A stretch of DNA of 54,829 nucleotides, the filler included, from Sluysia triapertura (taxonomy: Eukaryota): assembly GCA_046118255.1 (NCBI GenBank). It is 4 parts of 4 records of this genome, joined end to end, with 100 filler letters (N's around TTAATTAATTAA, not from the genome) between each part and the next. Parts side by side here need not be neighbours in the genome. Positions count along the whole stretch, not along the records: positions 13,625 to 27,117 come from JBJNIA010036816.1; positions 27,218 to 43,279 come from JBJNIA010211365.1; positions 43,380 to 54,829 come from JBJNIA010184601.1; 1 more part is not named here. One strand, written 5' to 3'. Made by a program: the position numbers and the translations under genes. The notes under the pieces were generated by a model, which was not told the DNA's origin, ran no database searches, and saw nothing but the letters and a program-made list of their open reading frames with translations. Of the stretch, positions 19,803-53,379 are shown one piece after another (the first letter of the stretch is position 1; each line of letters begins with the position of its first letter).

Positions 19803-19804
<2 letters not shown>

Positions 19805-27000: not shown

Positions 27001-27117
27001 TGTTGGGGTAAAAGGCCTATAAAGTGCCAAGTAGTATAACTGAATATATTGAAAATGAAATTGTTAGACGGGGCTGATAGCTCAGTGGTAGAGCAGTCGG
27101 ACTGCGCAGACGATGGT
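27001..27117 (+). mobile_element. tRNA-containing LTR-like element, best-preserved 5' part, cut by contig end
   Basis: Starts TGTTGGGGTAA like the copies at 37284-37391 and 51071-51214; contains GGGCTGA-TAGCTCAGTGGTAGAGC (box A, D-arm). Confidence 0.85.
27071..27117 (+). tRNA. tRNA-Ala-like sequence (element-borne, truncated by the gap; probably not a canonical tRNA gene)
   Basis: D-arm GCTC-AGTGGTA-GAGC. Using the 3' half from the 51071 copy, the acceptor stem GGGCTGA/TCAGTCC-A has G3:U70 and A73. Anticodon arm is irregular. Confidence 0.55.
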
Positions 27118-27217
27118 NNNNNNNNNNNNNNNNNNNNNNNNNNNNNNNNNNNNNNNNNNNNTTAATTAATTAANNNNNNNNNNNNNNNNNNNNNNNNNNN
27201 NNNNNNNNNNNNNNNNN
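27118..27217. other. Artificial contig join
   Basis: N44-TTAATTAATTAA-N44. Confidence 0.97.
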
Positions 27218-27254
27218 TATTAATATTAATATTAATATTAATATTAATATTAAT

Positions 27255-27301
<47 letters not shown>
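27218..27301 (+). repeat. Compound (TATTAA)n(AAT)n microsatellite at contig start
   Basis: Direct observation. Confidence 0.95.
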
Positions 27302-27302
<1 letters not shown>

Positions 27303-28596
27303 TTTATTGACATTATAGTAGTTTATTAATGTTGATAATTATGGTCGTCATGTATACTTATTCCGTTTTATCACCTAGTTTATAGAAAAAATATTGATAA
27401 ATAAATTAATACATTAAAGCAGTTATTGATATTATTATTATTATTGTTAGTGTTAGTGTTAGTTTTAGTTTTAGTATTTTCGGTCTTTCTAAAACTCGGC
27501 ATGTACTTCAATTCAATTACATTTGAAGTTCATTTTATATATTAATCAATTTTATCATGTGTAATTTGTTAATGGGAGGTTGACATTTGTATTAAAAAAG
27601 GCAAAGTTGGTTGATAATTTACAAATGTAAGGAAATGTTTTGTTCATAAAAGTATGCGTCTATATTGTCTATGGTCAATTGAGCGGTGGGTGAGAATCAA
27701 TGAATTTCTGGAAGGCCAGTTTGGAGAATTGTCGGAATTAAATTGTTTTTCCATCAAATTTCGTCCAAAAGGTGGAAGAAGCGGTAGTCAGTGGGGGCTG
27801 GGCTGGTTACTATGTAGGATGATTATGAAGTTTGTGCAGTTGGGGCATTTTTCTTTATTTTTTGCATCATTTTGTCCAGCTGGTTGCAATATATTTCTGC
27901 TTGCTTGTTTATTTATCCTTGACCAAGCACTGCGATTATCATCAGAAGTAGCAATTCCATTCATAAATGGATAAGATTTATGACAAGAAAGCAACATTCC
28001 AAACACGTTTGTTTCTTTATTTCATTCAGTTCATGTTGAACTCATTTAATCAAAGTTTTCACTTTACCGATTTGACCTAAATGAGTTAATATTGTTTGTT
28101 TAATAATAATAATGTATAGGCACCTTTAGTTCATCATTATTGACCTTTGATTCTGGGAGAAATATAGCGAAATAATAGTAACACTATTGCCAAACGTATT
28201 ATTAATGACTTTCCGACCGTTTTGTTTTCAACAAAATTAAGTTTTAAAAAAGTTTTTAATATTTTTTCTAACTTACAATGATTTCTTTAAATAGGTGAAA
28301 TATGTAAATTTCCAACAAAAAGAAACAACAATAAAATGTTAAGCTAATGTCAAATTATAAGCTGTTAAATTTGGCATATTGTTAGCTACAAATTTCATAC
28401 TTATCAAATTGGTAGATAAATAATGCATAAAAGAAGTATGATTATATGCATTAGGAAGTTATTATTTATGTATTGTTTAAAATTTAACAAACATTTTTAT
28501 ATATTTTGTGAGTTGTTTTTTTCACTTAAAATTTTACATTTTATCTACCAATCATTAAAAACTTGTAAACCAATTAATTTATTGCCTTTTTCAAAG

Positions 28597-29211
28597 GATT
28601 TTTGCTATGAAAATGAAAGCGACACATGGTCAATATTAGAAGCAGTTACTTTATGTGTAACTGTGATAGTGTATGCACCAGAAAGTGCACGTGCACGGCA
28701 AATGATGATTATTCTTCAAGCAATTCTTCCTCTTATACTTCAAGATCTCTCGACAGCATCTGGTCATTTACAATTGCAGCATCATCATCATCATCATAGT
28801 AGTGGTAGTGGAAACTTATTGAATAGTAGTGGAGGTGGTGCTGGTATTGGTTCTGCTGGCACTGCTGGTGGTATAAGTGGTCCAAGTGGTGCTGGATTTC
28901 TTCATCATCCACTTCATCACCCACATCATCCTATACAACAAAGTCAATCTGCAGAAGTTATTCTAGGAAGTAGTGGCATGCTATTGAGTTCAGCAGGGGC
29001 TCCAGGCTCAAGTTCAGGAACAACTCCAGTCATTGGTCCAGGTAGTTTAATTCATCCTCATTCTGCTCCACCGATGGGATCAGGAATAGGTGGAGTAGGA
29101 GCCGTTGCTGAGACTCCTCTTCCGCATAGAGCTGAGACACAGGCAATACAACAGCTAGCTGTCTCTATTAAACAACTAATTTGTACATGTGACTATTTAA
29201 CAAGGTATGTT

Positions 29212-29289
<78 letters not shown>

Positions 29290-32200
29290 ATCACTGAGAT
29301 TAAATTCTAATAATTGCATTTTTCACTTTTATATTAGTCAAATTTTAAAGTACTATTTTTCTTCGTGAATTACAGAGTTTCTGATAGACCATTCGGAAGT
29401 GGTGGAACTGGTACAGGAGGTGGACGAGAAGGTAAAGCTGGTGACGAAAAATGCAGTTTTCGAAGAGGTGGAGGAGGAACTAATTATTCGCAAACTCAAA
29501 ATTCGGTAATATTAGATGAGCAAGATGAATCTCCATTTCGAATTATTGAGGAGTCGCAAACACAACAGCAACAACAGTCACAACAAATTGGAGTACAACA
29601 AGCACAAGGAGGTTTGATTGGACGATTTAGAAAGAACACTTTAGCTTCTGCAAATAACCTCATTGCAGATGAAGAGAAAATAATCGGACAACAACAAGGT
29701 GTTACAACAACAGGTGGCCGTGGTCCGAGTTCAATCTTATTAGCTCCTCATGAAGCAGTGCTGCAGGTTGCCTGTGACTTTTACACGACTTGCCATAATA
29801 GATTAGGTGAATTAGGCGAGAGACATAAAGCAGCTGTGGAATTATTGGATCAAAAATCAATTACAGTTTGTTTATTTAGTTTATATAATGAATAATAGTA
29901 AATATATTATAATATTAATGAGAGTCATAATTATTCAACGAAGTTTGTTGAGAACTTATTTAATCTTTTGCCTATTAAACGTAACTGACACATGAATGTT
30001 GATTGTGTAATCGTAAAATAAATAACTCCATTGTTAAATTTAAATTTTTAACTACAATTTTAATTATTCAGCGTTTATCAGAACTGGCTCAAATAATAAT
30101 CAAGCAAATACCGACTGATATGTTAGCTTTAAAAAGTGAAGCTTTGCAACGATTTTTTCTGGAAATTCCACCGTTTATAGATTGGAATCATGAATCACTG
30201 AAATCTTGTAAAGCCTTAGAAAATTTGATTTATCGACTTAATCGTACAATAACAAAGATTTTGAAAGATGGTTTTGGAAGAGTTAGTTTGAAACATATTG
30301 ATCATATTATAATTCACAGCGCGTTTTATGTTATTATTAAGAAATATAATAAAATATTGTTAGGTTGTCATCACAACCCTCCAAAATCATTAAATTACAT
30401 TAAAGAAATTGTTTAAAATAATTAATTTCTATAAAAGAAAATATTTCTCGAAAAAAGAAATCAAAAATTCTAGAGCATTCCAGAAATTCCATTGATTTTG
30501 ATTGGTTGATGATTAGTATATATCTGGTATCAGTTTATTTTAAAACACAATTTAATGACATTTTTAACACGGTTCTAAACTGATTACACTTGTGAGTTCT
30601 TCTGATTCATCTCTCTTTGGTAGAGATGGAGTGCTATATTTAGTATAAATTCAAGTTGTCATGTAATAAATATAACTGAAAACTGTAAACTAAATTTAAA
30701 ATTAGGAGCCACACTAAGAACTTTTTTAATTTTAAAATGTTTATCTCTGAAAAGCCTTTTGAATTATTAATTAAAAATAATTGGATTTTTAAAATAATGC
30801 ACTTAAATATTGATAAAAATTCGAATATTTTCATAAAAATATTATCATATGTCCAACAAATATGTTTTATTCCTTATGTTTTTTGGATGCTAACATAGTC
30901 TGACAGATTCTTGCCTTCTTTCTTCTTGTTTGTTTGCTAATTTCCAACTTCTACTTTGATTAAGTGTTTTTGATGCTTCTGAAAATAGTATAAAAAATTT
31001 TCGAGAGTTTTGAACATTTTAATGTTGTAAAGCAAACGAAGGGTAATTTTGTATGTTTTTATTTAATGTGTTTTTAATTTTTAATAATTTTTACAATCTT
31101 TATAAATTTATAAATGGAGTTTTTGTAAAAATTATTAATCTATTTATATTGTAAATCTAAAACAAAGATTTAATTTATAATGGTCATATTTTTAGAGATT
31201 TGTTAATTGGGACAGTCTTACAAATTTGATACAAGCTGTCTTTTTAATTGTCAAACACAACAAAAGTGTGGCTTATATGAAAGACGTTCGAGTAAGTCTA
31301 AAATTATTTGAAAATTTAATATCAAATCAAAAAATATTACATAAATAATAAATAAATATTTGCTTGTTTTATGTTATGTACTTTGTATTCGGTTAATTTT
31401 AGTAGAAGTTTGAATTTGTGCTGTATTTCTAAGTTTAATCTAAAATCCTTATGATTATCCAAGAAATATATTAATAAGTACTCTAAAAATAGATTCAATA
31501 TTTCAATATACGAATACGGTGTTCTACCAAAGTTTTTAAATGTTTTTTTGAAAAATTTCGACATAGTTTTCTTATAATTTATTTTCAAATGTAATGTCTT
31601 TAAAAAAAATCCATCTTGAAAACATTTATATGTTACCTGATACTAAATTTGTATTGTATAATAGTAAGATAATCTTGCATGACCATTGGGGATCATTTGT
31701 TCTTGGTTTTTTTTATTTTTATGAATTAGACAATTATCAATAAATAAAAATAATTCATTTTCGTTATCAGTAAAACTTATCGAAACGCACTTTGTCGCCG
31801 CTTATCGCACGTATAACATATATAACTTACAATATATTGTGTCAAGGCACTAAGTGTTGATAAATGAATAATAAAATCTGAATAACAATATATTTTGTGG
31901 TTCTTAGTGCTCAACTTTATATAAAAAACATAACATAACATAGTGTTTAAAGCATTGATATTTTACAAAACGACAACTGGCAATGATTATGCTCATTGAG
32001 GATATACGAATATTGAATAATCCGACTTCAAACCATATTTTATTTTGTAAGATAGTTTATAAAGTAAACATTTGCCATTGTGAGTGATGATAGTGCTGCA
32101 TGAATCATTGAGTTATTACTTAATTTCAAGACTAAACTACAAATTTCATTACATTGTTATATTCCATTTATATCATTGCGTTTATTAACTTTTTACTAAC

Positions 32201-35200
32201 ATGTTTAATTATGCTACTGTCTGACGAATGTAGGGACTCTCATACACAAAAACTCCAGTTCGTAGGTCTAAGGATTTCTTTTGTTCTAGAGTTCTTACAT
32301 CTTTCATCGACTTGTGGATGAATATTTTTGATGCTAAGTGAATATAGAAAAAGTATTAGTGCCATTGTATTCATGAAATAGATGTATGAGTGCATGCGTG
32401 TATAAAATCTTATAATCCAATCAGGACCATAGCATACTTATTGCAAAAATAAGATAATTTTGAAATTCGGCTTGGAATTTTTTAAATTATTTGAAGCAGA
32501 ATATCGCGTGGAGTTGGTTGTGGGCTTTTTTAAGGATTATTAAATATGTCGTAATAAGTATAATTTTTATCTCAACAAAAGCTTTGCTTCAGCCGTGACA
32601 CCTCAATGAAATTTTGACAAACAATTACTTCTTGTCGCGTCGTAAGTTCCATAAATTATAATTTATGCATTAAATATTAAAGCTCTGATATAGCTGTGAT
32701 TTGTTAGTGTGCATATTATAATAATTAATAATCCTAAACTTTAACTAAAATGTTATCTTTCACCCAATCAAATCAAAACTACATACAAAAACATAGATTA
32801 TCTATAATTTATTATAGATTATCTTCATACCTTAACCTTCAACCACCATCTCACCCCTAAGCACACATTTCGTTAAATCAATGTCATTAATCACATATTT
32901 CTCTATCCATTTACATTCACGCACTTACCTCAATAAAATATGTAAGGTTTCTATAATGACAAATTTTTACGCATGTCTACTGCTATTCTTTGTATATCTA
33001 ATATTTTACATACATCTTTAAACGTAATATTAATGTATTACTTTTTAATAATATTAAGATCTTTTGATTACATTTCGTACGCAGATTCTTTATTAAGAAA
33101 TCTTGACACATTTTTAATGTACTTTAACAAATTTAGGCATTAAAACCATTTCTGAATCATATTTATTCAACTAACATTATAAACTGTTATTATTTTTAGA
33201 ACTTAATGGATTATCTTAAAAGATTGATTTTATTGGAAAATATAGAATCTGTACATCAACCAATGGTAGCAATGAATGACAGTCTTAGTAGTATTCAATT
33301 TAGTGGACGACATGAAACATGTATGTTTAAAATGTTTATTCTAATTGGTTTATTTAAGTATTATAGGAAATTATGCAAAGATTTAATTTAATTTTGTTTT
33401 TTGTGATTGGTTAGTGTAAATTTAATTATTGTTTATCATTTACGTTACAGAAAATGATTTCATTAAGTGGTGAACTAATTGCGGAAACCCATATAAACAA
33501 CACTTGAAGAGAGAATTTTCTCACTATAAAGCCCGTATTACGATGTTGTGCATTAAGTGTGATTGACAAATTTCATAGTACCACACAAAATGGAAAACAA
33601 GCTCAACCCACCAATGCACACAATGCACGGATAATTTGTCGCAAGAAAAGCTAAGATGTTCTGGACATATGGTTTCATTTAAGTAGTAATGTTAATAGTC
33701 AGTACTGTTTAGCAGATGTTAATCATCAGTATCACGAGCCTCCATGTGCCTTGTAGCAAAAGAGAATTATCGGTCCAAAATCAATGGCTATCAATACACA
33801 GTTTCTCTTGAAACTGAAAATACTTAGTACACCATGTAAATATTTTCAACAAAATTATTTGGAAGCTGATAATTTCCCATAAAATTTGACCTTCCATGAC
33901 ACCTGCAAATTTTTACCCATGGGTTGATTTAAAGCACGAGTTTATCGTTATAATCTGCAGCCTAATGATGATTTTAAAATGGCAAGTGTCAATTTTATTG
34001 ACACGAGCTTAATCATTTTCTACTATCCCGGTGTTTGCTCATCAACCAATTGAAAACATTTCTAACATTTACTGTAGAAATAGAGTAATTATACGAACAG
34101 TTACTTTTGGTTCATCCAGTATTTTATTCATGTTTATGTTTGTCGAAGTTTATTTAAATATCAATTTTTATTTTGTAAAACTTGTTTTTTCGGTAATTAG
34201 AAGATTTTCATTCAATATAATTTGATAGCAGAACAAAATATGTTTAAATTGTCATTTGTACTTATAATTACATATATCTAGTTAATCTACATAATTAGGA
34301 AACTGAATAATATAAGTTTTAAAGTATTTTATTTATTATATTTTCACGAAATTTGAAAATCTGTGTTTTGATTATTATCGTCAAATTTAATAAATTAATA
34401 CATTTCAGGCCAATTAGGTTGAGATAAATGTTTCAAAATTCAGATATTTATTGTTTAGGTTCTGGGCAAAATACTGGTAGCCCTAATCATGTACCACTGC
34501 AATCTCCAGAAGGTTTATCTTCCGATAACATGGTCCCAGCTGCCCAGCAACAACAACAAGATGCATATATGTACCCTACAGCAATTAATACTAATTCTAA
34601 TGCTATTCCTGCTAAATTTTCTGCAATGGCTATTAAATTCTTTGCTTTGATGTTACAGTGTCTTGAAGTTAGACATTTTATATAGTATTACCATGAAATC
34701 GAATCAGATTAACATTTTAAATTAACTAGTTTTTCCAAATATGCAAATTCTATTTAATTTTTTGTCATGAAAAGTTAAAATAAAAAAATCGATTTTAATT
34801 GTTTTGTAATAAATTCAAAATAAAGCACACAAATATTATATAATAATTCAATAAACATTTTATTTTGAAATATGAAAATGTTGCAGCTTTGGTTTGCAGG
34901 ATAAACTTTAANNNNNNNNNNNNNNNNNNNNNNNNNNNNNNNNNNNNNNNNNNNNNNNNNNNNNNNNNNNNNNNNNNNNNNNNNNNNNNNNNNNNNNNNN
35001 NNNNNNNNNNNNNNNNNNNNNNNNNNNNNNNNNNNNNNNNNNNNNNNNNNNNNNAAAATTCTCCTATAATAATGATAATAATTTAAATAATGTAATAAAA
35101 AATAAAATATAAAAATATTTTCAATTAAATTGTTTCCCAAAATAAAGAATAATATATACTTAATAATTCTATTCAGCATAAGGAATGCGTGTGTACTCAT

Positions 35201-36025
35201 TTTTCAATCAATTACAAAGAGTACAATACTCATAAGTACAAGTATATAAACATTTCTCAATTTAATATTGAAATATTTGATAATTTTTAAAAAATAAAAA
35301 ATATTTTTAAAAATTTGTAAACGAATATTTTTTAACAATATTATTTTAAATCACGATTATTGTTAAATCAGATATCATGCCATTCTAAAACAAGAGTGGA
35401 CTGTGAATATCGTCAAAAAATTAATTTAATACCAGACATTATCTGAATTTAATTCAAATCTAAAATATACGTAAATTATACTATGTAAATTTTAAATTTA
35501 CAGTTTATTTATCTATTTAATTTATAATATTGATACTTAATGCACAATTATACGTGTACACTTATAATTTTCATTATCACATAATATACATCAATTTCAT
35601 AAGTTATTGTATATAATTGCTACAGATTCTCCCATTTTCGTAAATCCTGTTTAATTGGATCTAAATTATATAGTTTTATATAGTCTTTGGTTTAAATACG
35701 ACGATAAATTAATATTTTTCGTTTTATTTGAAAAGAGAATTCAAATATTTCATTTAATTTAAACTATCTGAGACTGATAAATAAATCTTAAAGAGATGAT
35801 AGAACTCCAATAGAATCCATATAATAACACCATAACAATTTCAAAGTTTATTGCATTTTGTATATTCTATCTTACTTGATACGGAGAACTATACACCATC
35901 TTTAGAATGTCATAAGAATTCTGCATTTAAGTATTCGACCTCCATTTATATTTAAAATCCTGAATTATATATTTAACTCATAAATTGTTACAAATAATGG
36001 TGATTGTAGGCTTTCGTTAGGAAAC

Positions 36026-36080
<55 letters not shown>

Positions 36081-39000
36081 GCATACAATTCTTTACTATA
36101 TTATTATATATTGTCCATTTAATGCAGACATTTTTACTTGTTGGCTAATTAAAAATTAAATTAATTTCTAGAATTCTAATTTTGTCAAATTAATTGTTAT
36201 TTTGTGCATTTCTATTTTTCAAGAATTTCAATTTTATGATAAAGAGTTTGTCTAATTCATTCTGTAACTACATAATAATCGAATAATACAACATAATCTT
36301 GCAATCTCAATCAATTTCGAATACAAATAAAATGAAAAATTCCTGGTAAACAAATATAAATATTTCTTGATAGATATCATAGAGTTTTTTTATTTTTCTG
36401 CTAATCTGTTTTACAAGTGCTCGAATGGAACTCTAGTTTTCATTGAAACGATTCAAAATATGTTGGTCGGCGCTTAATTTTAAAGTAAGTAGAAATAAGA
36501 GTTTCAACTTCTTATTTGCTGAAAATAACAATGCTTTTCCGAGATGTAACCATAATGTCTATATGAATATTGATTAACTCAAAGAATAGTGTGGACGATA
36601 ACTTAAGCTTAATTTCAATTTTACTATTATCGAAATTTATGAATGTCTCTTTCTTTAAATTAATAGAATATTCGAGTGAATATTTTAACAAAAATTTAAC
36701 TACTAAACTCTTTCTGTAATTATTATATTTGAATCTATAACTTAGTTAAGTTTGTTAGAATTTGAGTGTTTAATTTATAACTCTCTTTTGTCTTTATTTA
36801 AATGAGGGATTGTAAATAATTCGTGAAAACGTGTTTTTTACTACAGTTAAAACCCTGTAATTTATTTTTTAAATGATACCATTTGCCTATTTAAAATGGC
36901 TTTTGAAAGAGCGCTCATAATTAAGATTTGATAAGTTGATATTAAATAAATAAATAAATAAATTTATCAAAAAAGGCTATATATAATGTTACTAAAATAA
37001 GGTCTCTTAAAGGTTAACTGAAATTTTTTGAAAGTCTCAAGTGACGGGACAAAACATTTATTATTAATTTACGTAGAGTTTAGATGTTTCTTAGGAACAT
37101 TCTAACGTTTTCCAAGTAGTTAAAATAATTTCGTTTTCAATAATCTCTGTCAATATGAATGTATTATAAGAATCACTAATTTCTTTTCCATAATATATAA
37201 ATTTCTTCAATGAAAACGAAAAGTTGTGCTTTTAATCGATATTAATTTTTTGAGAATTAAGTACTTTTTAATGTTGTATTATATGTTAGACTTCGTAAAA
37301 TTGACTGATCAGGGATCGAACCCGGGACCATCGCTGCCCCGTCTAACGATTTTTTACCAAATGGCACCTTAGGTCTTTTCTTACCCCAACATATAATTGA
37401 AACTCAAATTTTTGTAAAAAGATTTTGTTATGACAAAATTGTAAGTCAAACTTTTGTAAAAAAATCAACTTATCAGTTGAATTTATGCGTGGCCACTATT
37501 TGTGATGCTATTAATCAAATGAAAATTTTGACCTTAAAGATCTTTCTTTGTACAAAAGTTTATTTTGTAAACGTGTAATAAGTAGCTCTGTACCTACTGC
37601 GATGAAAAATCTAGGCCTTTGGCTACTTTTTAAAATAATTATTTTTATTTACTAATATGACTAGTTATAATTTTTAGCAAACTATTATTAGTTAATATCT
37701 TTAACATTATTTAACATTATTTAACATTATTTAATTATTATCAATTATTATTATTTTACAGGCATATTTATAGATTATTATTCTATTGTTATCTACATTA
37801 TTATTATAATTTATAATCGTCGTCACTTAATGATGAATGAGTGAAACATATTCGTTCAGTGTTTTTTGAAAATCGAATTGGATATTGTTCGGTGCACGAA
37901 AGGGTTATTGATGACAAAAATGAATGAATCAAATGATATTCTAACTTTAACATCATCAATATTTTCACCAAAGTATTCCAATATCATCTAGAATCATTTA
38001 GAAGCATCATTTCTTGAATTACCGAACATATCTTTAACCAACTTCAAGTTCTCAACATCTTCACACCCTCTAATCATCTAGAATTCTTCAGAAATATATT
38101 TTTTAATCAAAATCGAATTAAAATTTACTATTAGTTTTATTTTTAATAAGATAAAATCAAGCTTTTTGGCTTTGGATATGTATTTTACTTTCTGACACTT
38201 ATTACTGTGGTCTGGAGGTTACTATTCACTCGTCTCTGGTGTTAGGGATTTTATTACAAAATGTATTCAAGATTCGAACTTTCTCTTTTGCTTCCTTTAT
38301 AACAACAAAAATAAACGAGTTAAAATTTATTTACAAATCTGAATAACCGAACACATAAGTTTCTGTACGTATAAAAATTGCTTTGAAATAAATTACTAAA
38401 GTACCACAACATGTAATTTTTGAATGTAATTGTTTTATTCCTTATTTTAAGTAAACGTTATTCGAATTTAATATTTATATCTTTAAATATTATTCTACTA
38501 ATAAAAAATTTATCAGAATTATCGTTAATAAAGAAAAACTTCTCTGTTTTCTTTTCCTTAAACGTATCACTTCTTCCGAATAAAGCTTTCTTAAGCTGCC
38601 GAATTTCATATCTTTTATCTTATTCGAAAATTAATTATCTTCTTTAAATCAAATATGGCTATTTCCAAATTTGCACCGCCTAGATATTATATATTATTAT
38701 ATTTTGGCTGGTAAATTGTTATTGTTTTTTAATTATTTTATAGTAATCTTCTATATATATTATTTTTTACAATTGTTTTATAGAATAATTATTTCATGCA
38801 CAATAGAGAGAGTCATTTAATCATACTTTTGTAGGTTGTTAATAATAAAATAATAGTTGTTTTATAAATAATAGAGTCAATTGTTACTGTTTTTCAATTA
38901 TTTTGAGATTATTTATTTACTATAAGAATAATTCTGCACAATTTGTATAAATAATTAAAAACAATTTTATAAACAACAGAGAATTACCTAAAATTAATAT

Positions 39001-40267: not shown

Positions 40268-40308
<41 letters not shown>

Positions 40309-42475
40309 AATAATCTTTCTTCAAAGTATTATTTCCCTCTAAATATCCAAATAGCCTCTATAAAAATATCAAATCTTAAATAGTCTCCTTTTTGTGAGCT
40401 TAGTTGTTGTAATAATACTGCTTATTATTGGTTAATTTATTTATTTTATCTGGGTAATCAGTACAATGTATACATAATAGTTATAGTAGTAAACCACATT
40501 ATAATAATAGAGTAATAATAGTAGTTAATGATAATAGTCAGACCCCAAACAGTAGAAATAATATTAATATTAATATTAATAAACCGTAATACTAATTTTT
40601 ATCTGAGTAATTTTTGTTAATAAATTTTAATTATATGCAATTTATATTCATTCATATTTTAAAATGATTTTTGTCGGTTATAATGTTTTCAAATTTGATA
40701 TGGCATTATTAATCGAGAATAATGTTACTAATTTTTAATTACTCACAAGTTTTATTCAATCTCTATTTAATTTAATTTTAACTTACGTTTTAAACTAATT
40801 TTATTTTTAAAGTTAGATTTTACATTCTCTTTATAGAATCTCATTTTAAGATGACTATTTATTTAATTTCAATTTAAAATTAGTTACTATTTGTTATTAA
40901 ATTTTGAATTTATATTAACCCTTAAATTTTATTTTAGATTGGTATAAAGCATTATAATCTTAATAGTAATTATTTAATTGAATTTAAGTTAAATGGATTT
41001 TAAATTTGATTTAAATTTTTTTGAAAATTGAAAATAAAAATGTGAAAAATGAAAAATTGAAAGTTGGTTGAATATTATGTTATATTACTATTATGAGATT
41101 ACCTGATTCTTCAAACACAATGTAATGGTAATTATAAATTTATTTGTTTTTACAAAACTTTGTTTTATTCAGGGTTCATATAAATTGAAAGATTTTTGTG
41201 AAAGATATGACCAACAATACGGCAATACTGAATCAATTTTAGTCAATTATCTAGCAAATATAATTATTCCTCTTTTACTTCGATGTGGTGCTGGTAGAAG
41301 TGGTTAGTGAAACAATAAAAATTTCATTTTCGTTACTCAAAATCAATTCAATAATTAAAGGATTAATTTATCAGTATTAATTTCAATATAAAATGATATT
41401 ACTTTTATATTACTTCTATTATGATATTACTTCTTGTTCGTACTGCGTGCTAGCAAACTAATTAAACAAATAAATATTACAAATATGTTACTTACCATAG
41501 AAAATTAAGGTAAGTCTTATGTTAAAAATAAAAAAAATATTACGCTATTATTTTTATTCTGTATGAAAAATTTTGTTGGAACTTCCCCCTCCTTCAGAGT
41601 TGTCCCGCTGTCACCTTAGTCAATACAGAAAGAGGAAATTTAACTTTATTAAAATTAAATTTTATTATTTATAAAATTTGCTTTCTTATATAATTATTAT
41701 TATTATTATTTATTTTATGTTTTATTTATGTACTTTTGTCTTATTTATCTAAATTTTATTCATGTAATTGTCACAAATATTATTTATAAATTATATTTTA
41801 AATATTAAATTAATAATAAACTAATAATTTTAAAAGTTTAAGCATATTAATCATCAGTAATTTATAAATCAACAATACCTTTTCAGGTCAACAATAACAA
41901 AAGCGTATATGCATGATCCTAATTTAACAAAATGCATTCATTCAGAAAAGATTTTTAAATAATTGTGACGTTAAATTTATTTGGATAAAAATCTTATTTG
42001 ATACTCCGTTAACACATAAATGTTATTACAAGTTAACATTATTATAGAAGTTGAAAAACGCTTCTAGAAAATTATTGAGTTTATTTGATTTGGTCTACTT
42101 ACATAAGCTATTTGATTATTAGTCCACGTATATTGACAATATATCATGTATTACATTTGTTTACGCCGTCTTATTTCTTTCCATAGGGACTTATTGATGC
42201 ATTGAATGTCAGTCTTTCGGTATATTTTAGATTAAGTATTATTATTGATAAACATTTAATATTTTAACTATTTTAATATAGAGTCTTTGCGGTTATCTGA
42301 TGAGAATATTTACTTTATATTCGATTTGGTACTATCTTCGCTTAACCCATTACTTCATTCAAGTTCTAATATCCCAATAGTACATTCAGGATCTATAGCC
42401 CCACAACATCATCTAAATCATTTGCATCATCATCACTATCATCAGCATCACAGTCAACAACAGTCCAGTCAACAT
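28597..42475 (+). CDS. UNC80: UNC-80 (NALCN channelosome subunit), eight internal exons
   Basis: Exons 28597-29204, 29376-29865, 30072-30281, 31196-31291, 33200-33320, 34459-34667, 41173-41302 and 42282-42475 have AG/GT ends and compatible phases. DFCYENESDTWSILEAVTLCVTVIVYAPESARARQMMIILQAILP matches the UNC80 motif I recall (DFCY....EA..LCVTVVAYAPES.R..QML); also ELLDQKS..RLSELAQ and IIIPLLLRCGAGR. Confidence 0.88.
29212..29289 (+). repeat. (TAC)n microsatellite in intron
   Basis: Begins a few nt after the splice donor at 29205; explains the poly-Tyr in the ORF track. Confidence 0.95.
30358..30550 (+). mobile_element. Second copy of the HSE/CCAAT-bearing LTR-like repeat
   Basis: TGTTAGGTTGTCATCACAACCCT...; TTCtaGAGcaTTCcaGAA at 30468-30485; ATTGG at 30501. 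Confidence 0.55.
31940..32270 (+). mobile_element. Possible Penelope-like 3' remnant with decayed hammerhead ribozyme
   Basis: MLIEDIRILNNPTSN is weakly like a GIY-YIG endonuclease tail; CTGACGA-stem-(g>a)AAAC-TCCA-GT(c>t) at 32221-32260. Confidence 0.3.
33500..34030 (+). mobile_element. Degenerate Tc1/mariner-superfamily (maT/rosa-like) transposase remnant in a UNC80 intron
   Basis: Ordered motif fragments WFHLSSNVNSQ (33670-33702), KRIIGP (33760-33777) and W..KARVYR (~33920-33950). Confidence 0.7.
36031..36080 (+). repeat. (AAT)n microsatellite
   Basis: Direct observation. Confidence 0.95.
37284..37391 (-). mobile_element. tRNA-containing solo-LTR-like element with TATA target-site duplication
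   Basis: TGTT...AACA termini with TATA on both flanks; retains box B (GGTTCGATCCC) and TTTT; box A/D-arm deleted. Confidence 0.88.
40269..40306. repeat. (TA)n microsatellite
   Basis: Direct observation. Confidence 0.95.
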
Positions 42476-43204
42476 GTAAGTGTATATTTATCTTTGTTTA
42501 CTAAATCAAATAAAATATTCTTCTATGACTTTGATGTGTAGCAGTTATCAATGTTTAATACCTTTTTGCATTGTAAGTATTTTAGATATTGAAAGTTTTT
42601 TAGGGAATAAGTTCATGTTTTTGATAAATGAAGTATTCATGAGTCGAGTGATTGTTATGGAACTATTTGGAATTTGTCATATGTATTTATTAGTGCATGG
42701 ACTTTTATATCTAAAAGGCAATGAATCTGAAGATAGGATAACAAGAGCACATATCATTAAGTCGTCGAGTGAAATACCTTGTATTTGAAGCATTATTGTC
42801 AAAATGTACTCATTTTACATTTGATATTTTGTTTAGTTAGTAGAATAGATACACTCATAAGTATTTTTATAAATTTCACTCATGAATCTTATTTAACCAT
42901 GGTACCGTAGTTATAATATTTTAACTCTTTGTTTAATATTATCAGGTTTCTTTCAACCTGAGTCTTAATATCACTAGAACTTTATGTGAACGATGGACAC
43001 TCCATTTTAAATGTTTCCCTAAAATATAAATCAAATACATATAAATATAAATTTAATATCATAATATTTCTGAGTCTTCTATTGTCTATGTTCTAATGTG
43101 TATTAATTATGTACGGATATTAACTTTATTCAAAATTTTAATGTAAAAATTATTTTAGTGTTATGAGTTATGAATAATTGAATGTGCTTAAACGTACTCT
43201 ATAT

Positions 43205-43279
43205 CAGTGATTCTCAGCCTTTTTTTGTTGCGGCACTATTTTAAAGATTTCAAAATTTGGCGGCACAGTTTAAAAATTA
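43205..43279 (+). mobile_element. hAT (Charlie-like) terminus cut by contig end
   Basis: CAGTGATTCTCAGCCTTTTTT followed by two GCGGCAC subterminal repeats. Confidence 0.6.
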
Positions 43280-43379: not shown

Positions 43380-44621
43380 TTGTACTTTTTTACTTTTAAA
43401 TTAAGCATTTTAATTTAATTAATTTTTTATTTGAATTAACTTTTATTAGATTATTAGTTTTATAATTATTTTTCTATTTAAACAAATAATTAATAATTTA
43501 ATTATTATGATCCAAAATTTTCAGAATTTCTTTAAAAATATTGATATTTACACTTCATTTATATACACTTCTCACAGTAATCTTAAAAAATTTTATTTAT
43601 TCTTTATTTGGACCCACACATCAATTTTAAAAATTTTTCGATTTCTTTATCTGGTTCACTTGGAATTCAATTGACACATCAATCTTAAAATTTTCTAATT
43701 CCGTGGATTTTGATTGATTACACAGATAAACATTTGGTTTACTCGTTAATTTTTTTATATTAAGTTCGCAAAATCAACTTTAAATCGCTAATTTTATTTT
43801 GATCGCCTTTTTAATTTGGGAGACGAAAAAATTAAACTAAATCTTTAAATTTGATTATATTAATCTGGTAATATATTATATTATACTTAATATTTTATAT
43901 AAATTTTCGCTATTTTTTACTTGAAAATTATACGTAGGGTGCGCCGATTTTACTCGGTCGTAAAATCCACTAAAAATATTAAAAGACGATTTAAAACACC
44001 GTATTTTCTATATGGTAGTAAACCTCGACGTAAATTCTCATCTATTAAATTCTAACTGATTATTGACTTTGCACTGCATAAAATAGTTGACCATTTAAAA
44101 ATCATTACTTACCTCCATTTACTGTTTTCTTTTGTTTGCTACTTACAACTTAGCCCTTAAGTGAGTAAGACTAAGATTGTAAGGGACTCACCACATAAAT
44201 TAAGAAAACAATAACACAAAACTTTTCTGCACTGAAATTATAATGCTTTTATATTAATTTAAAATGAAAAAGCATAGAATTAATATAAATTTAGTAATAA
44301 TCAATTTTAAATTGAAATTATATAAACAATCATTTTAAAATGAGATTCTACGAAGACAATATGAAATTAAAATTTATAAACGTCAAACTTTACTATTATA
44401 ATCAATAAATCATTTTAAAATAAGAATCAATAATATGAAATCAAACTTTAAGAAGATAAAATTCGACTAAAATTATCTTACAAACATGATTTAGAATATT
44501 ATATGGAAGATAAAGTCATACTAGATTGAGATTAAATAGAACTAGTATATAATCAAAAATTAATAATAAAATTAACTTAAATTAAAAATTTGATATAATA
44601 AACAAAAGTTATGCAAAAGCG

Positions 44622-44692
44622 TTAATAATAATAATAAATTAATTTATATTGCGCTCATATCTACTGCAAAGTACTCAAAAGCGCTTGAGGTA
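44622..44692 (-). mobile_element. Short L2 3'-tail fragment
   Basis: TTGCGCT(C/T)ATATCTACTGCAAAGTA shared with ~16328-16352, next to an AAT-repeat tail. Confidence 0.7.
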
Positions 44693-45148
44693 AATCATTC
44701 ACCATATTTCTGAAAAAGAAATAATTTTGCCTTTTTCTTAAACTCTAAATAAACAATTTTTACTAAAAATGTTTTAATTTTAAACACTTTTACAATCAAA
44801 TGGTTCTAATTAAAATTATAAAAAAGTTTCTTCATCAATATTTAAAACATTTACTTGATTGCAACATTTATTTAATAAATCGAAATGCAAAATACTGAAT
44901 TATCTTTAAGGCCATGCATGCCAAATAAGTTGATGAATGAAAGATCAAAATCATACGCAATTAATTTTTTCCAAAACATTAAAGATCCAAGTTTTTTAAT
45001 TAATTATTTTATTATCAAGAATCAATTTTAGCAGTTATTGTTTTAGTCAAGATATTAATAGCATCTTATTTACTATGAGAATCAATATTATTATTTGATA
45101 TGCAGACAAAATTCAACAAAGAAATTTAGATAACTATTAATATCTAAC

Positions 45149-45873
45149 TTGATTTTGCCAGATAATCAATTGAAGGTTTGGGATTATCACGAGATGTTGT
45201 TTTGATTATGTGGACTTTACCAAGCTCATTGCTTCGTAAAACATTATAAACTTTCATAATGGAAGGGTCGAAACGGCTAAATAATAAAATATCAAAATAA
45301 CTACAGTGTCGCAAAATTCTATATTCCGTTTAAACAAAATAAAAAATCGTGAAATTAATAGTTAAAAGCAATAGATATTATTCAAATAAAAGGCTTCGGG
45401 TTTATAATATTAAAACTGCATTAAATTAATTAAAATTTTCATATATCGAATTAAAAATTACCGATTTAGGGAGCAATGTAACGGTAAATTAAGTTTTGCT
45501 GCTACATCATAACATTTGATTGTGCCTTCCACTGATGAAGATATTGGTTTTTCACAAAATACAGCCTTTCCTGTAAAAATTAATGACACTACTAATACTA
45601 ACCATAATTTAACGATTGGATTATCAACTTTTCGTGAGAATCTGTATAAGTGCATATGATTACACCATCTAATTCGGGATCCTGTAAAATTCTGTCTAAT
45701 TCATCAGCAGTTAAAAATTTTATGTTATTAAATGTTTTTTGTAATTCTATAAGTTTTTCTTTATCTATATCAATAGCATAAGCCAAAGTTGCTCTTGCTG
45801 AATTAAGAATATTCTTCAGGTGTATTGTTCCAGCCCTTCCTATTCCAACTAAAGCTAATTTATAAAGTTTCAT
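45149..45873 (-). CDS. Gfo/Idh/MocA oxidoreductase, myo-inositol 2-dehydrogenase-like, first three exons
   Basis: Exons 45873-45603, 45570-45462 and 45276-45149. Rossmann LVGIGRAGTIH, GKAVFCEKP, LNRRFDP, IIKTTSRDNPKP. Later exons not identified. Confidence 0.9.
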
Positions 45874-46189
45874 AATTAATTACAAATGGTGGTTATGTTT
45901 CTTAAATTGAAAATAAAAGCTTATATACTCTTACTGTAACCTTGAAATTATATTTACTAATGTATTACTAATCAGCATTATTTTAAGAATAAAGTAACTT
46001 ATGTTATGAAATACTTAAGATTTAAAAATCAACAGATGATATATACATAATTTAAATTTCATCTTTAACTGCAAAATAACAAGATTTTGACTTAAAAATT
46101 TTATAATTAATTTTAAATAAATCTTCAGTTCTATTAATTTTTTAAACAAATCTTCAAGTATTTTACCTTAAATTATAGCGATTATATCA

Positions 46190-47345
46190 GAAGCAACGAA
46201 CCCATGGCACGGGAAAATTTTTTGACGCGAGAAAAATATAAATTATAATATGAAATAATATTAAAATTGAGGATGAATTTAACATATATTCATGAATTTT
46301 GTTTTTATTTTTGACCTTCAAATACGCATCCAAGAAAAAACAAGTTATTCGTTGATCAAAAAGTATGAAATGTTACTTAAAGAAGATAATATTCTAAGTG
46401 CTTCATTTCCAGTTCTTTAATATGCAGACATATTGAAACCAACATGCAGTCTTAGAAAAAGCAATGAAAAACAGTTAATTTCAAAGTAACTCTATAATTC
46501 TACAGAAATATTATGGATTTAACAAAAATTAATCATGAAAACGAAGATGAAACAATTGAATTTGACATTAAAAATATAACTTATTATTATCTAATAAGTT
46601 TACTAATTTCAAGAAATACAAGATGTTATCTAAGTTAAAATATTATAAAACTTGTATAACAAAAATAATGAAACAATTAAAAGCAAAATATAAAGATATT
46701 AATGATTGAGTAGATAGTGGTCAATATAAATTAATTATAAACAAACAGATCAGTAGGGCTGCAGATAAAGAAGAATTTAAAATAATTGTGGTTTACATTA
46801 TATTTCAATCTGACAAAGTAAAATACTGACCACAATCAAGATAGATAAGATTATAGATTTTGTCAATAAGTAAATTAAACTTATTGTAAAAATATAATAA
46901 GAAGAAAAGAAAATCAGAATCCTAATAAACCATATAATATATTGGAAATTTATTTGACAATATTAAAATACTGAGTATAGCCATACCTAAAATATGTAAT
47001 TCCACAAATAATATGCTTTTTGTAGTAATATTGTTGGCCATGTTCGGCATAAATAAAAATAGTGCAAAAAAAGCGTTAGATTGTAAGCAACAAAAATAGG
47101 AAGAAAATTTTCTTTATTAGATACTTAAAATCGTCCAGTATCAAAACTTAAACGAATTAAGACAAAAGACACAAAAATTTAAAATCTTTATCTTAGTGAC
47201 GGCATCAGTGAGAGAGTATATTGTACTGTAGTCATTACAGTCGCTTTTCAATAACTGAATTGTTAAACGTTTTAAAAATCTTTCAAGATATTGTCCGACC
47301 AATGTTGAGATGCTTTTGAAACTGGATATATAAGTTTAAATAAAA
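46190..47345 (+). mobile_element. Heavily decayed hAT transposase remnant
   Basis: SERVY (~47207) and PTNVEMLLKL (~47295) resemble the hAT C-terminal dimerisation domain; left boundary uncertain. Confidence 0.4.
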
Positions 47346-47406
47346 TAGATAAATTAAGAATAAAGAATAATGAGAAAATGTTTTATAATATTAGAACTGC
47401 AGGTAT

Positions 47407-48000
47407 TGTATTGTCAAGGTGTTGCAGGAGTTTCTATTGAAAGCTTAAAAATTCTTATTCTTAACTGCAAGTTATCTGAGGAGTCGGTTTGCCTCTATAT
47501 TGAAGACGTACTATTGGGATTTTTATGACTTAACTTAATTATAACTTAACTTAATTAACTTTAGATAAAACTCTTTACTTATAACTTACGTCTTATCTGA
47601 CGATGTCTAATTAATTTATGATACAACCTTTTACGAGGTGTTGTCTAATTGAAATTATACATTTTATAATTGCGCAATCCGTATTAAGGAATTTCTCGCA
47701 AGAGACATTAGTATTTTAGAAGATTAAGCAACCCTTGTTAAGGTGTTGCTTGACAAAACGAATTTTAAAAGTTTATTAAATTAAAAACTCTAATATTCTT
47801 AAAGTATATTATCCACAAAGACTAATCAAAAATTCGTGAAAGATTAAGACTATAATAATGATAATAATTTAGTTAACTACTGAACCTCTGTTAGCAGTTT
47901 TAGAAAATTTTAAATAAGTTTCGCAATCCGTATTAAAGTGTTGCATGAAATAAAAAAGATTTTAAGTCAAAGTTATGTTTCCTATTAAAGTGAAACAAAA
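47407..48000 (-). repeat. Candidate 3' LTR of the Gypsy-like element
   Basis: Minus-strand end reads ...ACAATACA; minus-strand TATA-like at ~47495; internal repeats CGCAATCCGTATTAA (x2) and GTGTTG (x4). No partner LTR in the window. Confidence 0.35.
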
Positions 48001-48618
48001 GCCTTATATAAAAATTAATTACTTGTATTGCATGGAATAAATAAATAATAAATAAAGAAATTATTTTAAATAATTAACTTGCTTTAAACAATAATTTATA
48101 TTTTAAACAATAATTAAAAATTTTGATTTTTTTAAATAAATTTTTTAATTTTTTAATTTTATAATTTTTACTTTAATTTTCTTAAATAAATTTTTAATTT
48201 TTGATTTTATTTTTTAATAATTTTTTACTATTATTTAATTTTCTTTTTTTAATAATATTAATTTTTTATTTCTGGGATTCCATGTTAATTTAATATTTAA
48301 TAATTAATTTATATTCTAAAATAATTACATTCTGACACTAAAACAATTTATTCTGACATTACAAAACTTTATAATTTAAATTAATACAAATTATAATCCA
48401 CATTAATAATCATTAATAATATTTACAAAATTTAATAATCATTAATAGTATATCAACAATCATTAATCATTAATATTATTTACAATTTACTTCACTGTTA
48501 GGGAAAATTCGTCCCGAATCATAAAAGCATTGCTGTAAAAATATAATAAGATATAAGGATCATAATAAATCATAAAATGTAAGGATCACGTAAAAAAGTT
48601 ACTAGTTAGATGTAAGTG

Positions 48619-50519
48619 TTAGTTTGAATCGTATATGTCGATATCGGATGCGTCACTACAGGACGTTGGATCTGCTGGGCTGCTCATAGATTGATAACGA
48701 TACTTCTTGTAAGTTTTGAATGTCGTATTATGCCCAAATGGGACGTTAGTAGGTTTGGGAGAATGTTAGTAGTCTGGTACTGCTTTTATGAGTTTAGACG
48801 GTATTGTTGTCAATGATGACGACGACGATGATGATGTTAGCGCGGCATTGCGTAGCGTACTTTTTTGTTGTGACGATGTTGATAATGGCATTGACATTGA
48901 TTCTGATGGAGCCACGAAAGTATCTTTAGACTTAGAAGGCGTAGAGAAAAGTAGGGGAGGAGGAAGAGAGAAGTTCGGTATAAAAGTTAGATCTTTCTCA
49001 CGGATTAGATCCAGTAAAGACATCCACGAGCAGATCATACGAGGCGGTATCGGATATAGCAGTCTAAAAGTTAGTCTTCCCCTTAAAATAGCATTATCGG
49101 TTGTATAAAACAAAAGATTATTATTTGTAAGATTAATTAACGCTTTAAGCCAACTGAACGGTAGATTAAGATCTTTAATAATAAGACACGGGTTCAAAGA
49201 CACCGTGATCTTATCGTGCAGATGTCCTAACAGAAAGTGGCGGACATCATCAATATCTTTAGTGTCGGAGATATCTGAGTCTTTGATCTCCTGAATGTAT
49301 CTTACGAAGTTTTTGATACGTAATTGAGGTTTTATATTTATGTCGGTGTGATATTGTTTAGAATATGGGACGCAAGATATTTTTGTAATATGAGGACGGT
49401 TCAAGAAATCAAAAACGTATGAATAAGCTATGAAAACTAATCGGTCCTCATCATAAGCAGACATAGGCGGAACATGTGTAAAAGAAGTTTCGTTCTGCCA
49501 ACACGCCGTATTAGCAACATCGTCCTTATAAAGATTAGGGAAGAAGGATTGAAAGGAAGAAGGTGGCAAGGGATAAAGAAAAGCAATTGATGTGGGGCTT
49601 CTACTACTATATTACATTTTTTATAGATATTAGTGACATTCAATGAAGAAAAACTGTGGAAACTGGTTGTAAAAGGTACCCCGCTGTTTATTACGACACC
49701 TCGTGCCACAACTAAATATAAGGAGTTTATGGATTCAGGAACTTGAGAAAGGCCGTCTAGTCACACAAAAAGAGAGTTGGAAGTTAACGCGAAGATATGC
49801 GTGGCTAAATTGATATCTAATTCTGATTTAAGACTATTGGGGGTTTCAACAGAACAAGAAAAGAAGGCAGGGATGATACTTTCGTGGCAATACTTGTCCA
49901 TATATACATAAAAAGTTTTTTGTTGGTTGACTAACTTCGCTTGAATATGGCTATAAAGGAAGAAGGAAACGTAAAACCATACATGAAAATTTTAAATAAG
50001 TAAGCTATTAATTTATTATATTATTTTATTCTTAAATAATAAATATAATTAGGTAATTTTAGAACACCCTATCTTTTCTTCAAAAAAGGATTAATAGGCT
50101 ATGAGGATGTTGGCAATTGCGTCTCTTTTTCCTTATAAAAGTGTTTTAATTGACGCCTTCTTTTATTGCGTCTTTGTGATTTAGACAAGTTTTTTGGAAA
50201 ATTTGGGGGAGGTCTTACCTACCCTTTCCTACTAAAGTTTTTTCTTTTAATAATTGACGCCGGTTGATAAATATCAATTCCGGGCCCCTCGGAAGCATCC
50301 GTTATATACTTAACGGTAAAGGCATAAGAACGTGCGTTTATAGTAGATATCGCACTCAATGATGGTTGTTCCGCATAGTGGGCAAACAGGTAAATGTGAA
50401 GGCGAAGATTCAAAAAGGCTGTATAGACAGAAAAAATGGAAGCGGTGAAAACATGGAGAAGTTTTTGCAAAATACTTTGGAATGGAGCGGAGATAAACAG
50501 CGCAGGTAGAATATGACAC
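48619..50519 (-). pseudogene. Two-exon orphan gene, decayed, probably cargo of the Gypsy-like element
   Basis: Intron 50222-49951 (GTAGGT...ttccttcttcctttatag) joins FSRKG|HIQAKLVNQQKTFYVYMDKYCHE in frame. Two frameshifts and two premature stops; Ser/Pro-rich tail ending DIDIYDSN*. Confidence 0.6.
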
Positions 50520-50800
50520 TGTCTAACCGCAAAGAAAATATGTAATAAGATGATAAATGAGTATTAATAAAAATATTAAAAATCCTAAACCTAAATAAAA
50601 GTTAAATAATATTTTAGTTTGTGAATGACTCGAGATGGATGGTACACTATCACATACAGTCATTTACACGATCATTACTATTTCTAATAACAAATTTAAT
50701 ATTTATCCTTATGATTTTTATATTACACATGACCCAAGTTGAATGGGAGTACCATTACAAATGGCCAATTGTGTAATGTGTATTAAATTTTACATAAAAT

Positions 50801-53328
50801 CTAAATGAAAAAATGGGCCCTATACCTAATGAATAAGTAGAATTTTGGGATAATAAAGTTAATCATTAATGTTATTAAGGAAATTGTTATTAAAATGTAA
50901 TTAAAAGTTATGATGAAATTATTGATGGATTTCATTAGAGCTGGGAACTCAATATTATTTTTACTTATACTCATACTTATATTTGTAGCATTCGAACTCA
51001 TATTCATATTCCTGTTATAAGACATTCGTAAAATTGTTATTGATTTTTAGCGTTTTCTCTGATTTCGTATTGTTAGACTTCGTAAAATGGACTGACCGTG
51101 GATCGAACCCGGAACCTCTCGCTGCGCTATCACTGAGCTATCAGCCCCGTCTAACGATTTTATTTTATTATAGTCAATTTTACCAAATGGCACTTTAGGC
51201 CTATTACCCCAACAGTATACGAATCGTTTTCGTACTTATCAATAACTGGTACTTGCACATCATGATGTCTGATCGTTGGCCAAAATCATTCCATATTTCT
51301 TAATATCCAAAACTTGATAAACATGAGTTTATTATTCGGAATATGATATAAGCGAATAGTATCGTTAGGCAATATCATTCCGTAACGTAAACCGACAGAC
51401 AATTCATATGCAATTATTAATGTATTACTATATAATGGATTATTGATACGTACGATATTTTCTAGATAACGATAGATACCCATTGGAAATTCAATTGATG
51501 TCGATGATTGTTGAACAACAAATGACTTAGTTCTAATATTATATGTCGGTGATTATTGAAAAGTAAATAGTTTAGTCCTTATTTTATAGTATCGTATTAA
51601 AATAGTCTTTGAGTCACTTTGAGAATCATATTCTCATTCTATAGTTATCGTTACACTAATTAATTGATATTCAGCAAGATCAATGCAAGATATAAACCAG
51701 TAGAAATCTTGTTTACTTGCTCTTATTTCGGTTTCACATCAATCCATTATACAACATTTTATTTGGACAGAAAATAAATTAATCTGATCTATTAATATTC
51801 TAGCGTAAATGTCTTTTTGAGTAGATACCAAAATTATCTTAAGCGAAGTATTTCTTGAGAAGTAATTCGTGCTTGATATACAAGATAGATAGGTGCATAT
51901 TAAGATGGTTGATTTTACTTGAGTCATTTGCCAATTTCCATATATAAGTGGAACTTGATTATTTGTAGCGTATTCATAAATTGGAGGTAGAAGTATCGTC
52001 ATATCCGGTGGAGTGTAATTATTTCGATGTGGTATTGTATATGCATCGTCGTCATCATTGTAATTGTTATACGGTATTTATTTGATACAAACATAATAAT
52101 CGTTAATAATACTATAGCAAGAGCAATTCCGAACAATATTACTGATATTATTAGTATTACCAATGCTGGATTATTCCGTAGTGTTTCTAATATTGTTAAG
52201 TGTTTCCTGGTTCCTTTAAATGCAAAATGCAAATATTTTGATGAATGCCGAATTTTCACAATAATATGTCTATCCTCGATAGGTAGTATGTTTGAACATA
52301 CTGTGGCTGGATATCTCAAGTCATTATCAATATAGTTTTCGTATATGGTCCATGAACTAAAATTAAGTCTGGCAAGTTTTAAACAGGCAACTTTGGCATG
52401 AATATTTTGATTCAATATTCTAACCCTTATTTCATTATCTCTATTATAAAAGTCAAAATGTTCTATTTTAAAAGAATGCTCATGGCATGGAATTACCGTA
52501 TCTATTGTAATTAAAATCAACGGTATAAGATTTTTATTATTTGTAGGAACTCGTACTGCCCTATTAATTTGAAACAAATAAAGTATGGTCCAAAGTGTAT
52601 ACAGTACCATGAAGATTAATAACATTATAAAGAATTTATAAGAGTGTTCCATGGTATCTTTGGTAGTCGAAATTTTTGAAGTGCATATCTGTTTCTTAGC
52701 TGTATTATAATTAAGCAATGTTGTTGGTACCTCTGTTGTTTTTCTATGTTCCAATTGTTTTACGTTTTCGATAAATTTCCAAATATCTGTGTATTTCTTT
52801 TGGTATTTAGAGAAAAGGTTATTAACATGGGTATGTAACCATAATGCAAAAAATGCGAAAAACCGTTTATATGATGTGGTAATGACTTTAAATAAATACA
52901 GTAGATTTCGAATTCATGTCTTAGTTTCATTTTCTTGGAAATAAATTCGAATTTCCAGTGTTGATTGTAGATATCAGTAATCATTATCAGTAGCCATGAT
53001 TTATAGCAATATTTATATTTTTGTATTCTTCATCCGTCTCCGTTGCCATAGCGTTAGTTACTAGTGATAGAATAATCATAATTAATACATATATCCAATA
53101 AGTTAGTTTCTTAAAACAATTTCTATTGAAACCATTTCTATTCTTTATATTGGTCATTATCATTATTGTGTCTTGAGCTTCAGAGCCAATACTTGATGAG
53201 TCCGGACTTTCCTCTGATGTAACTGTTGATGGTGATCCCCATGATACATCCGACATTTGAAGTTTAGATACAACGACATCGGGTAATGGTAAATCTGGAA
53301 ATTGTAATAGTGGATTCAAATTTGGCAT
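50801..53328 (-). pseudogene. Env-position multi-transmembrane polyprotein, disrupted by frameshifts, stops and an insertion
   Basis: Contiguous same-strand ORF pieces with repeated hydrophobic segments (YWIYVLIMIILSLV; FFIMLLIFMVLYTLW; LVILIISVILFGIALAIVLL; ILITISLITLMINFII) separated by hydrophilic domains with NxS/T sequons. Confidence 0.7.
51071..51214 (-). mobile_element. tRNA-containing solo-LTR-like element with GTAT target-site duplication
   Basis: TGTT...AACA termini with GTAT on both flanks; tRNA-like 51147-51088 with box A, box B and TTTT; inserted in the membrane-protein ORF. Confidence 0.9.
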
Positions 53329-53379
53329 TTAATGTAAGGTTAGTTCATCACCGACTGTGAAACTAGTAGTTGAGGTATA

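Follow-up and report, generated by a model that had tools for sequence, protein, structure and literature searches.

The window analyzed here is a stretch of 54,829 nucleotides from Sluysia triapertura (GCA_046118255.1) that joins four contigs (1-13524, 13625-27117, 27218-43279, which has an internal gap, and 43380-54829) with GC contents of 20-34%, and the subject of this report is a family of short repeats, resembling solo long terminal repeats (LTRs), that carry a tRNA-like unit. An earlier note, made from the sequence alone, had listed four copies in three of the four contigs, and all of these places exist: two copies are complete with TG..CA ends, one is cut at a contig end, and one is a remnant. 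The copies, referred to below by their first coordinate, are flanked by target-site duplications (TSDs) or contain recognizable parts as follows.

51071-51214, minus strand: complete solo-LTR-like copy of 144 bp with TG..CA ends and TSD GTAT.
51067-51070, partner 51215-51218, no strand: the 4-bp TSD GTAT of copy 51071, seen in the sequence and in an empty-site contig.
51084-51087, minus strand: run of four T residues directly after the tRNA-like unit, a predicted weak stop for RNA polymerase III (Pol III), from sequence.
51088-51147, minus strand: tRNA-like unit, scoring 29.1 bits with Rfam RF00005 (cut-off 29).
51149-51156, minus strand: inner 8-bp inverted partner of the last 8 bases of the element (51071-51078), 7 of 8 positions pairing in copy 51071.
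51172-51186, minus strand: 15-nt stretch of the 5' part, 13 of 15 positions complementary to the tRNA 3' end plus T-run (51079-51093), from a shuffle test.
37284-37391, minus strand: complete solo-LTR-like copy of 108 bp with TG..CA ends and TSD TATA.
37280-37283 and 37392-37395, no strand: TSD TATA of copy 37284, from sequence.
27001-27117, plus strand: copy cut inside the T-arm by the contig end, with a 5' part at 27001-27070 and the 5' half of the tRNA-like unit at 27071-27117.
About 16225-16300, plus strand: decayed remnant, both termini lost, matching two other copies by BLAST at E 2.6e-4.

By BLAST, the copies share 84% identity along 96 aligned bp and 87% along 55 bp, and a profile of the four copies revealed no fifth in the window, the next matches having E values of 2.4 and 8. 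Copy 37284 is positioned between unc-80-like exons, and the T-run of the remnant abuts the tail of a long interspersed element (LINE) fragment. A short segment beyond that fragment (16984-16994) was considered as the displaced 3' end of the remnant and rejected, as 80 of 522 control windows score equally well.

The termini of the complete copies reveal how they were inserted. Both have TG..CA ends, exact 4-bp TSDs (a joint chance of ~8e-5 from the composition of the window) and no 3' tail, as the earlier note had described. In addition, one contig of a public run that contains the element region (run X1) joins position 51066 directly to 51215, skipping 148 bases and retaining 4 shared letters, as expected of an empty target; since the flank of copy 51071 is multi-copy, this contig may represent a paralogue rather than an allele. 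Because the TSD length is fixed, the ends are TG..CA, an empty site is present and a tail is lacking, the insertion is of the integrase type and not that of a short interspersed element (SINE), which bears out the mode of insertion proposed in that note. The empty target of copy 51071 (51058-51070 plus 51215-51226) is itself a near-perfect palindrome of ~16 bp, and the duplication is displaced by one base from the center of this palindrome.

Within each unit, a 5' part of 50-70 bp is followed by the tRNA-like unit, the run of four T residues and then 13 bases to the end. In copy 51071 the tRNA-like unit has an acceptor stem of 7 paired bp that includes G3:U70, along with A73 and an intact B box, and its A box is damaged by a change of the GG. 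Copy 27001 has kept its A box intact and alone among the window copies retains an anticodon arm; relative to it, copy 51071 has a 13-nt deletion that corresponds to the anticodon arm, and copy 37284 has lost 34 nt that comprise the D and anticodon arms, A box included, as well as ~20 nt of the 5' part. The copies decay by short deletions, and the B box is intact in copies 51071 and 37284, so that no window copy shows both boxes intact. In run X1, 97% of the depth at 51130 is the canonical A-box base, and no variant of G3 reaches 3%; U70 falls outside the range listed in the search with the element alone, and the 40 variants listed out of 147 in the search with 50900-51400 do not include it. 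The proposed retention of G3:U70 and A73 holds for copy 51071, the full stem being visible in no other copy; the tRNA covariance model is matched just at its cut-off in copy 51071, as listed above, and scores 17.6 bits in the truncated copy 27001. ARAGORN called no tRNA.

The tRNA from which this unit derives was assessed by eye, against the tRNAs of another species (the planarian Schmidtea). The G3:U70 pair is an identity element of alanyl-tRNA synthetase (PMC8583063), and the T-arm motif occurs in seven rows of the Schmidtea table, six of them Ala and one labeled Gln with an Ala-like body (PMC7962491). The D-arm motif also occurs in seven rows, which comprise three Cys, three Cys-like bodies under other labels, flagged there as isotype disagreements, and one true Ala (PMC7962491). 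In copy 27001 the anticodon arm agrees with the Cys rows, with pairing at three of five stem positions and GCG in the U33 register. Thus the description of the unit as tRNA-Ala-like stands for the acceptor end and T-arm; in the D and anticodon arms the resemblance is to tRNA-Cys, and the complete copies have lost the anticodon arm. No intact cloverleaf with an alanine (NGC) anticodon was found, the arm being deleted in two copies and, in copy 27001, Cys-like with GCG in the U33 register. The unit is a mixed, non-functional-looking tRNA derivative, as in most Helenus families, for which isotype disagreement has been reported (PMC10886601), and it is unlikely to be a working tRNA.

Two internal complementarities connect the 5' part with the 3' end of the element. 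The inner 8-mer is located just before the tRNA-like unit; its counterpart in copy 27001 (27062-27069) pairs at all eight positions with the end at 51071-51078, and 89% of the run X1 depth at 51156 is the pairing base. The 15-nt match, the longest internal inverted match and an offset one, was equaled in 1 of 2000 shuffles of the middle part and 9 of 2000 of the whole 5' part in a test that was chosen after the fold had been seen, and matches of this type were not significant in the other three copies (309, 1466 and 506 of 2000 shuffles). From their order, the 8-bp and 15-bp matches are alternatives and not one nested helix. The outer ends of the element pair over 4-6 bases, and the folding energy of five stretches was not beyond that of shuffles (z -0.07 to -1.63, with -0.07 for the whole of copy 51071).

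The abundance of the family can be gauged from run X1, in which 11,215 of 6,252,256 contigs fall on the region of copy 51071 (50900-51400). The element alone accounts for 9,589 contigs, in line with the abundance claimed in the earlier note, with 2,078 extending past its ends. Summed depth, which differs from copy number and is informative to an order of magnitude only, peaks at 1.97 million compared with 11-27 for the single contigs listed, and together with the density of copies in the window it suggests a copy number in the tens of thousands. The best-covered part of the element is the tRNA unit, with peaks at 51086-51095 and 51146-51155. Pooled flanks consist of unrelated AT-rich sequence with sharp ends, both at the 3' end (153 contigs, agreement 0.44) and near the 5' end (211 and 216 contigs, agreement 0.49-0.50). 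Loose ends match different 5' parts, of the copy 27001 type in 45 contigs and of the remnant type in 96, which indicates that subfamilies exist. Exact-pattern scans of metagenome contigs (two patterns) and of viral contigs gave no matches.

These properties make it likely that the four repeats represent solo LTRs left by a miniature LTR retrotransposon of the Helenus type, which has no coding capacity; most probably they belong to a new and very abundant family within a kind of element described in 2024 (PMC10886601), and not to a new kind. The unit sizes of 108 and 144 bp, both with deletions, fall within the 104-323 bp given for LTRs of animal Helenus elements, also termed TRIMp3 (Table S1, PMC10886601), and those of bivalves, brachiopods and nemerteans measure 104-193 bp and have 4-bp TSDs (supplement, PMC10886601); in size and layout the Helenus-like character suggested earlier is therefore upheld. 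The Helenus box motifs TRGCY, YGG and GGTTC (PMC10886601) are present across the window copies taken together. An excess of solo copies is also normal in Helenus, where the ratio of LTRs to internal regions reaches ~20:1 (Table S3, PMC10886601). Four run X1 contigs each contain two element pieces in the same orientation with undefined spacing, and two more contain short-spaced tandem pieces, a pattern that fits two-LTR copies; opposite-strand joints numbered zero in the element-only search and one, among the 15 of 23 joints listed, in the search with 50900-51400.

Several observations weigh against this assignment. The same-orientation pairs could alternatively be nearby independent insertions, and no two-LTR copy, primer-binding site (PBS) or polypurine tract (PPT) flanks the window copies, including the sequence upstream of copy 27001, which has no PPT. 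A Trp-type PBS motif has five weak matches in the window compared with 5.6 expected, i.e., at chance level. Neither a PBS nor a PPT is present in the majority of pooled run X1 flanks, for which the loose-end rows listed were 6 out of 245 and 6 out of 159 and in which, by estimate, a minority below ~1 in 5 would escape notice. None of five specific motifs links the family to a listed Helenus family, and a motif search of the supplement gave no matches for four of six motifs and single, unrelated matches for the other two (PMC10886601). Run X1 is possibly the source of the window itself, and hence does not constitute independent evidence.

If the assignment is correct, the solo copies would descend from a two-LTR parent with ~100 bp between the LTRs, including a PBS and PPT, as can be surmised from Helenus and Cassandra elements. 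Pol III is predicted to start at the tRNA unit in the 5' LTR, pass its weak run of four T residues and stop at that of the 3' LTR, in which case the tRNA unit would serve as both promoter and R region. An autonomous Gypsy partner would then package, reverse-transcribe and integrate the RNA, and recombination between LTRs would leave solo copies. More speculatively, the 8-bp and 15-bp matches might pair the RNA ends and aid strand transfer; in Ty1, CYC5/CYC3 pairing is required for reverse transcription (PMC3592414). Gypsy elements are the proposed partners of published Helenus families, for which Pol III transcription has not been demonstrated either (PMC10886601).

A Gypsy-type element is in fact present in the window, as copy 51071 is hosted by a decayed, multi-copy one (50900-54655, minus strand) that has lost its 5' end. 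The window contains a single integrase, a fragment within this element (54251-54592), and it most resembles Gypsy-type polyproteins of the order protease, reverse transcriptase, RNase H and integrase (PR-RT-RH-IN), with 21 matches among 72 candidates; the best six matches are 60-70% identical and all have reverse transcriptase or RNase H domains. The integrase core and a GPY/F-like motif are followed by a retropepsin-like stretch (~53450-53680) downstream of the integrase and next by membrane-rich open frames (52002-52913) that have a weak 7tm_1 match below cut-off, an unusual order that may reflect nesting or extra cargo. The location of copy 51071 inside this remnant shows that Gypsy elements occur in the genome, and not that the remnant is the partner.

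Among the alternatives, it is conceivable, and in our judgment unlikely, that the repeats are non-autonomous, cut-and-paste transposable elements of the miniature inverted-repeat type (MITEs) with a captured tRNA gene, moved by a Ginger transposase, which is related to Gypsy integrases. Both ends of the element fit the TGTNR termini of Ginger1 and Ginger2 and Ginger TSDs are 4 bp (PMC2836005), which also counts against the assignment to Helenus; in addition, Ginger2 shows a preference for AT-rich sites and includes a non-autonomous family of 252 bp (PMC2836005), the complete copies seen all occur singly, and the element contains the inner 8-bp inverted pair and the 15-bp inverted match. However, Ginger elements have terminal inverted repeats of 40-270 bp, compared with an outer pairing of 4-6 bases here, and target CCGG or CCGT (Ginger1) or RTATAY (Ginger2) (PMC2836005), whereas neither of the two target sites is centered on CCGG or RTATAY, one overlapping such a hexamer shifted by one base (n = 2). 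The relationship of the only integrase in the window to PR-RT-RH-IN polyproteins and the layout, which is that of Helenus LTRs, also argue against a Ginger origin. A literature search on tRNA-derived MITEs, judged by title and the start of the abstract, found none on such an element.

It is also improbable that a single unit derived from a Helenus LTR has become self-moving, as one-LTR or hairpin DNA taken up by integrase, a process for which we know of no mechanism. Such movement would explain the excess of single copies, as a solo arrangement is what every copy and the pooled flanks show, and it could be reconciled with the existence of internal inverted matches and with the rough estimate of tens of thousands of copies compared with 5,575 LTRs in the largest published Helenus family (supplement, PMC10886601). 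On the other hand, published Helenus families also show a large excess of solo LTRs, the 15-bp match is significant in one of four copies, the fold is no more stable than that of shuffles, and, by eye, a similar complement is present in LTRs of oyster Helenus elements for which normal two-LTR forms exist (supplement, PMC10886601). A broader version, in which the single tRNA-bearing unit is itself mobile, its internal inverted matches assist integrase insertion without a two-LTR parent, and it forms a bridge from LTR retrotransposons to MITEs, with an alanine-chargeable G3:U70 stem preserved in tens of thousands of copies, has a similarly low probability.

It is very unlikely that the repeats are the solo LTRs of a regular, autonomous Gypsy element or those of a Pol II-driven miniature terminal-repeat retrotransposon (TRIM), that carry an old, functionless tRNA-SINE insertion. 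Kojima has proposed that Helenus arises by insertion of a SINE into an LTR (PMC10886601), and the tRNA unit is enclosed by the inner inverted 8-mers as a nested insert would be, but the tRNA unit, half of the 150-bp element, is its best-covered part in run X1 and the window showed no copy that lacks it. A family of tRNA-derived SINEs or of processed tRNA pseudogenes, which the A- and B-box unit, size and abundance might suggest, is extremely improbable given a tRNA unit placed in the 3' half behind a fixed leader of 50-70 bp, fixed ends without a tail, 4-bp TSDs in both complete copies and the empty-site contig.

The remainder of the window provides the genomic setting of these insertions. Its exons, all divergent, match VPS13, UNC80, SH3-SH2, RGS and Gfo/Idh/MocA oxidoreductase proteins, and because of these matches the sequence points to an animal host genome. 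The coding features are:

556-4625, minus strand: VPS13-like exons, divergent.
14446-15117, plus strand: RGS-domain exons, divergent.
22446-23090, plus strand: SH3-SH2 exons, divergent.
28420-42538, plus strand: UNC80-like exons, divergent.
45461-45879, minus strand: Gfo/Idh/MocA oxidoreductase exons, divergent.
48769-49611, minus strand: stop-free frame of 281 codons without a Pfam match.

Other repeats are also present. The LINE fragment next to the remnant (16300-16930, minus strand), which we take to be CR1/L2-like, has an AAT-rich tail that abuts the T-run and has no Pfam match, and a second copy of its tail (44622-44673) is 94% identical over 52 bp. In the first contig, a ~600-bp inverted pair (10627-11228 and 12617-13271; 69% identity over 668 columns) encloses a further inverted pair of 130 bp, nested within it, as well as a 36-bp tandem repeat (11841-12051), and from its arrangement it looks like a decayed foldback element or DNA transposon.

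Among known systems, the TRIMs Cassandra and Ajax have, like the organization predicted for the family described here, a Pol III promoter derived from a small RNA within the LTRs of an element that has no coding capacity; they differ from it in carrying 5S rRNA sequence, and the TSDs of Ajax are 5 bp (PMC10886601). The ta-TRIM elements of taeniid cestodes, which are flatworms, resemble it in their many solo LTRs, mostly 4-bp TSDs and a proposed Gypsy-type partner, 'lennie', but in the available part of that report no tRNA-like cassette is seen in the LTR, and their transcripts are spliced and fused to genes (PMC4558846).

The closest likeness is to Helenus, with which the family shares a TG..CA unit of 110-160 bp, a tRNA-like cassette with A and B boxes located in the 3' half, then a T-run that is separated from the end by 10-20 bp, together with 4-bp TSDs, solo LTRs and isotype disagreement. 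By eye, the likeness in layout, length and terminal inverted letters extends to the LTRs of bivalves, brachiopods and nemerteans in the available part of the supplement (PMC10886601). One difference may lie in copy number, which by a rough estimate is ~10 times that of the largest published family in that same part. Flatworms are not in Table 1 of PMC10886601, no paper linking Helenus to flatworms was found in the literature searched, which did not cover Repbase, and among the papers listed for the term 'TRIMp3' in that literature only the original one (PMC10886601) was pertinent. If confirmed, the family would add a very high-copy member to Helenus; counts of tRNA genes would be inflated by such copies, which would also spread Pol III promoter motifs through introns.

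The internal complementarity provides a final point of comparison. The words 'inverted' and 'hairpin' appear nowhere in the main text of PMC10886601, where internal complementarity is undescribed, and by eye four oyster LTRs in the available part of its supplement (Helenus-3_CGi, -3_CVi, -4_SaGl and -4B_SaGl) contain, in their 5' region, a stretch that is complementary to the 3' end of the same LTR. Such matches, present in oyster Helenus LTRs as well as in the family described here, provide a testable idea of how the ends of Pol III-driven TRIM RNAs might pair.

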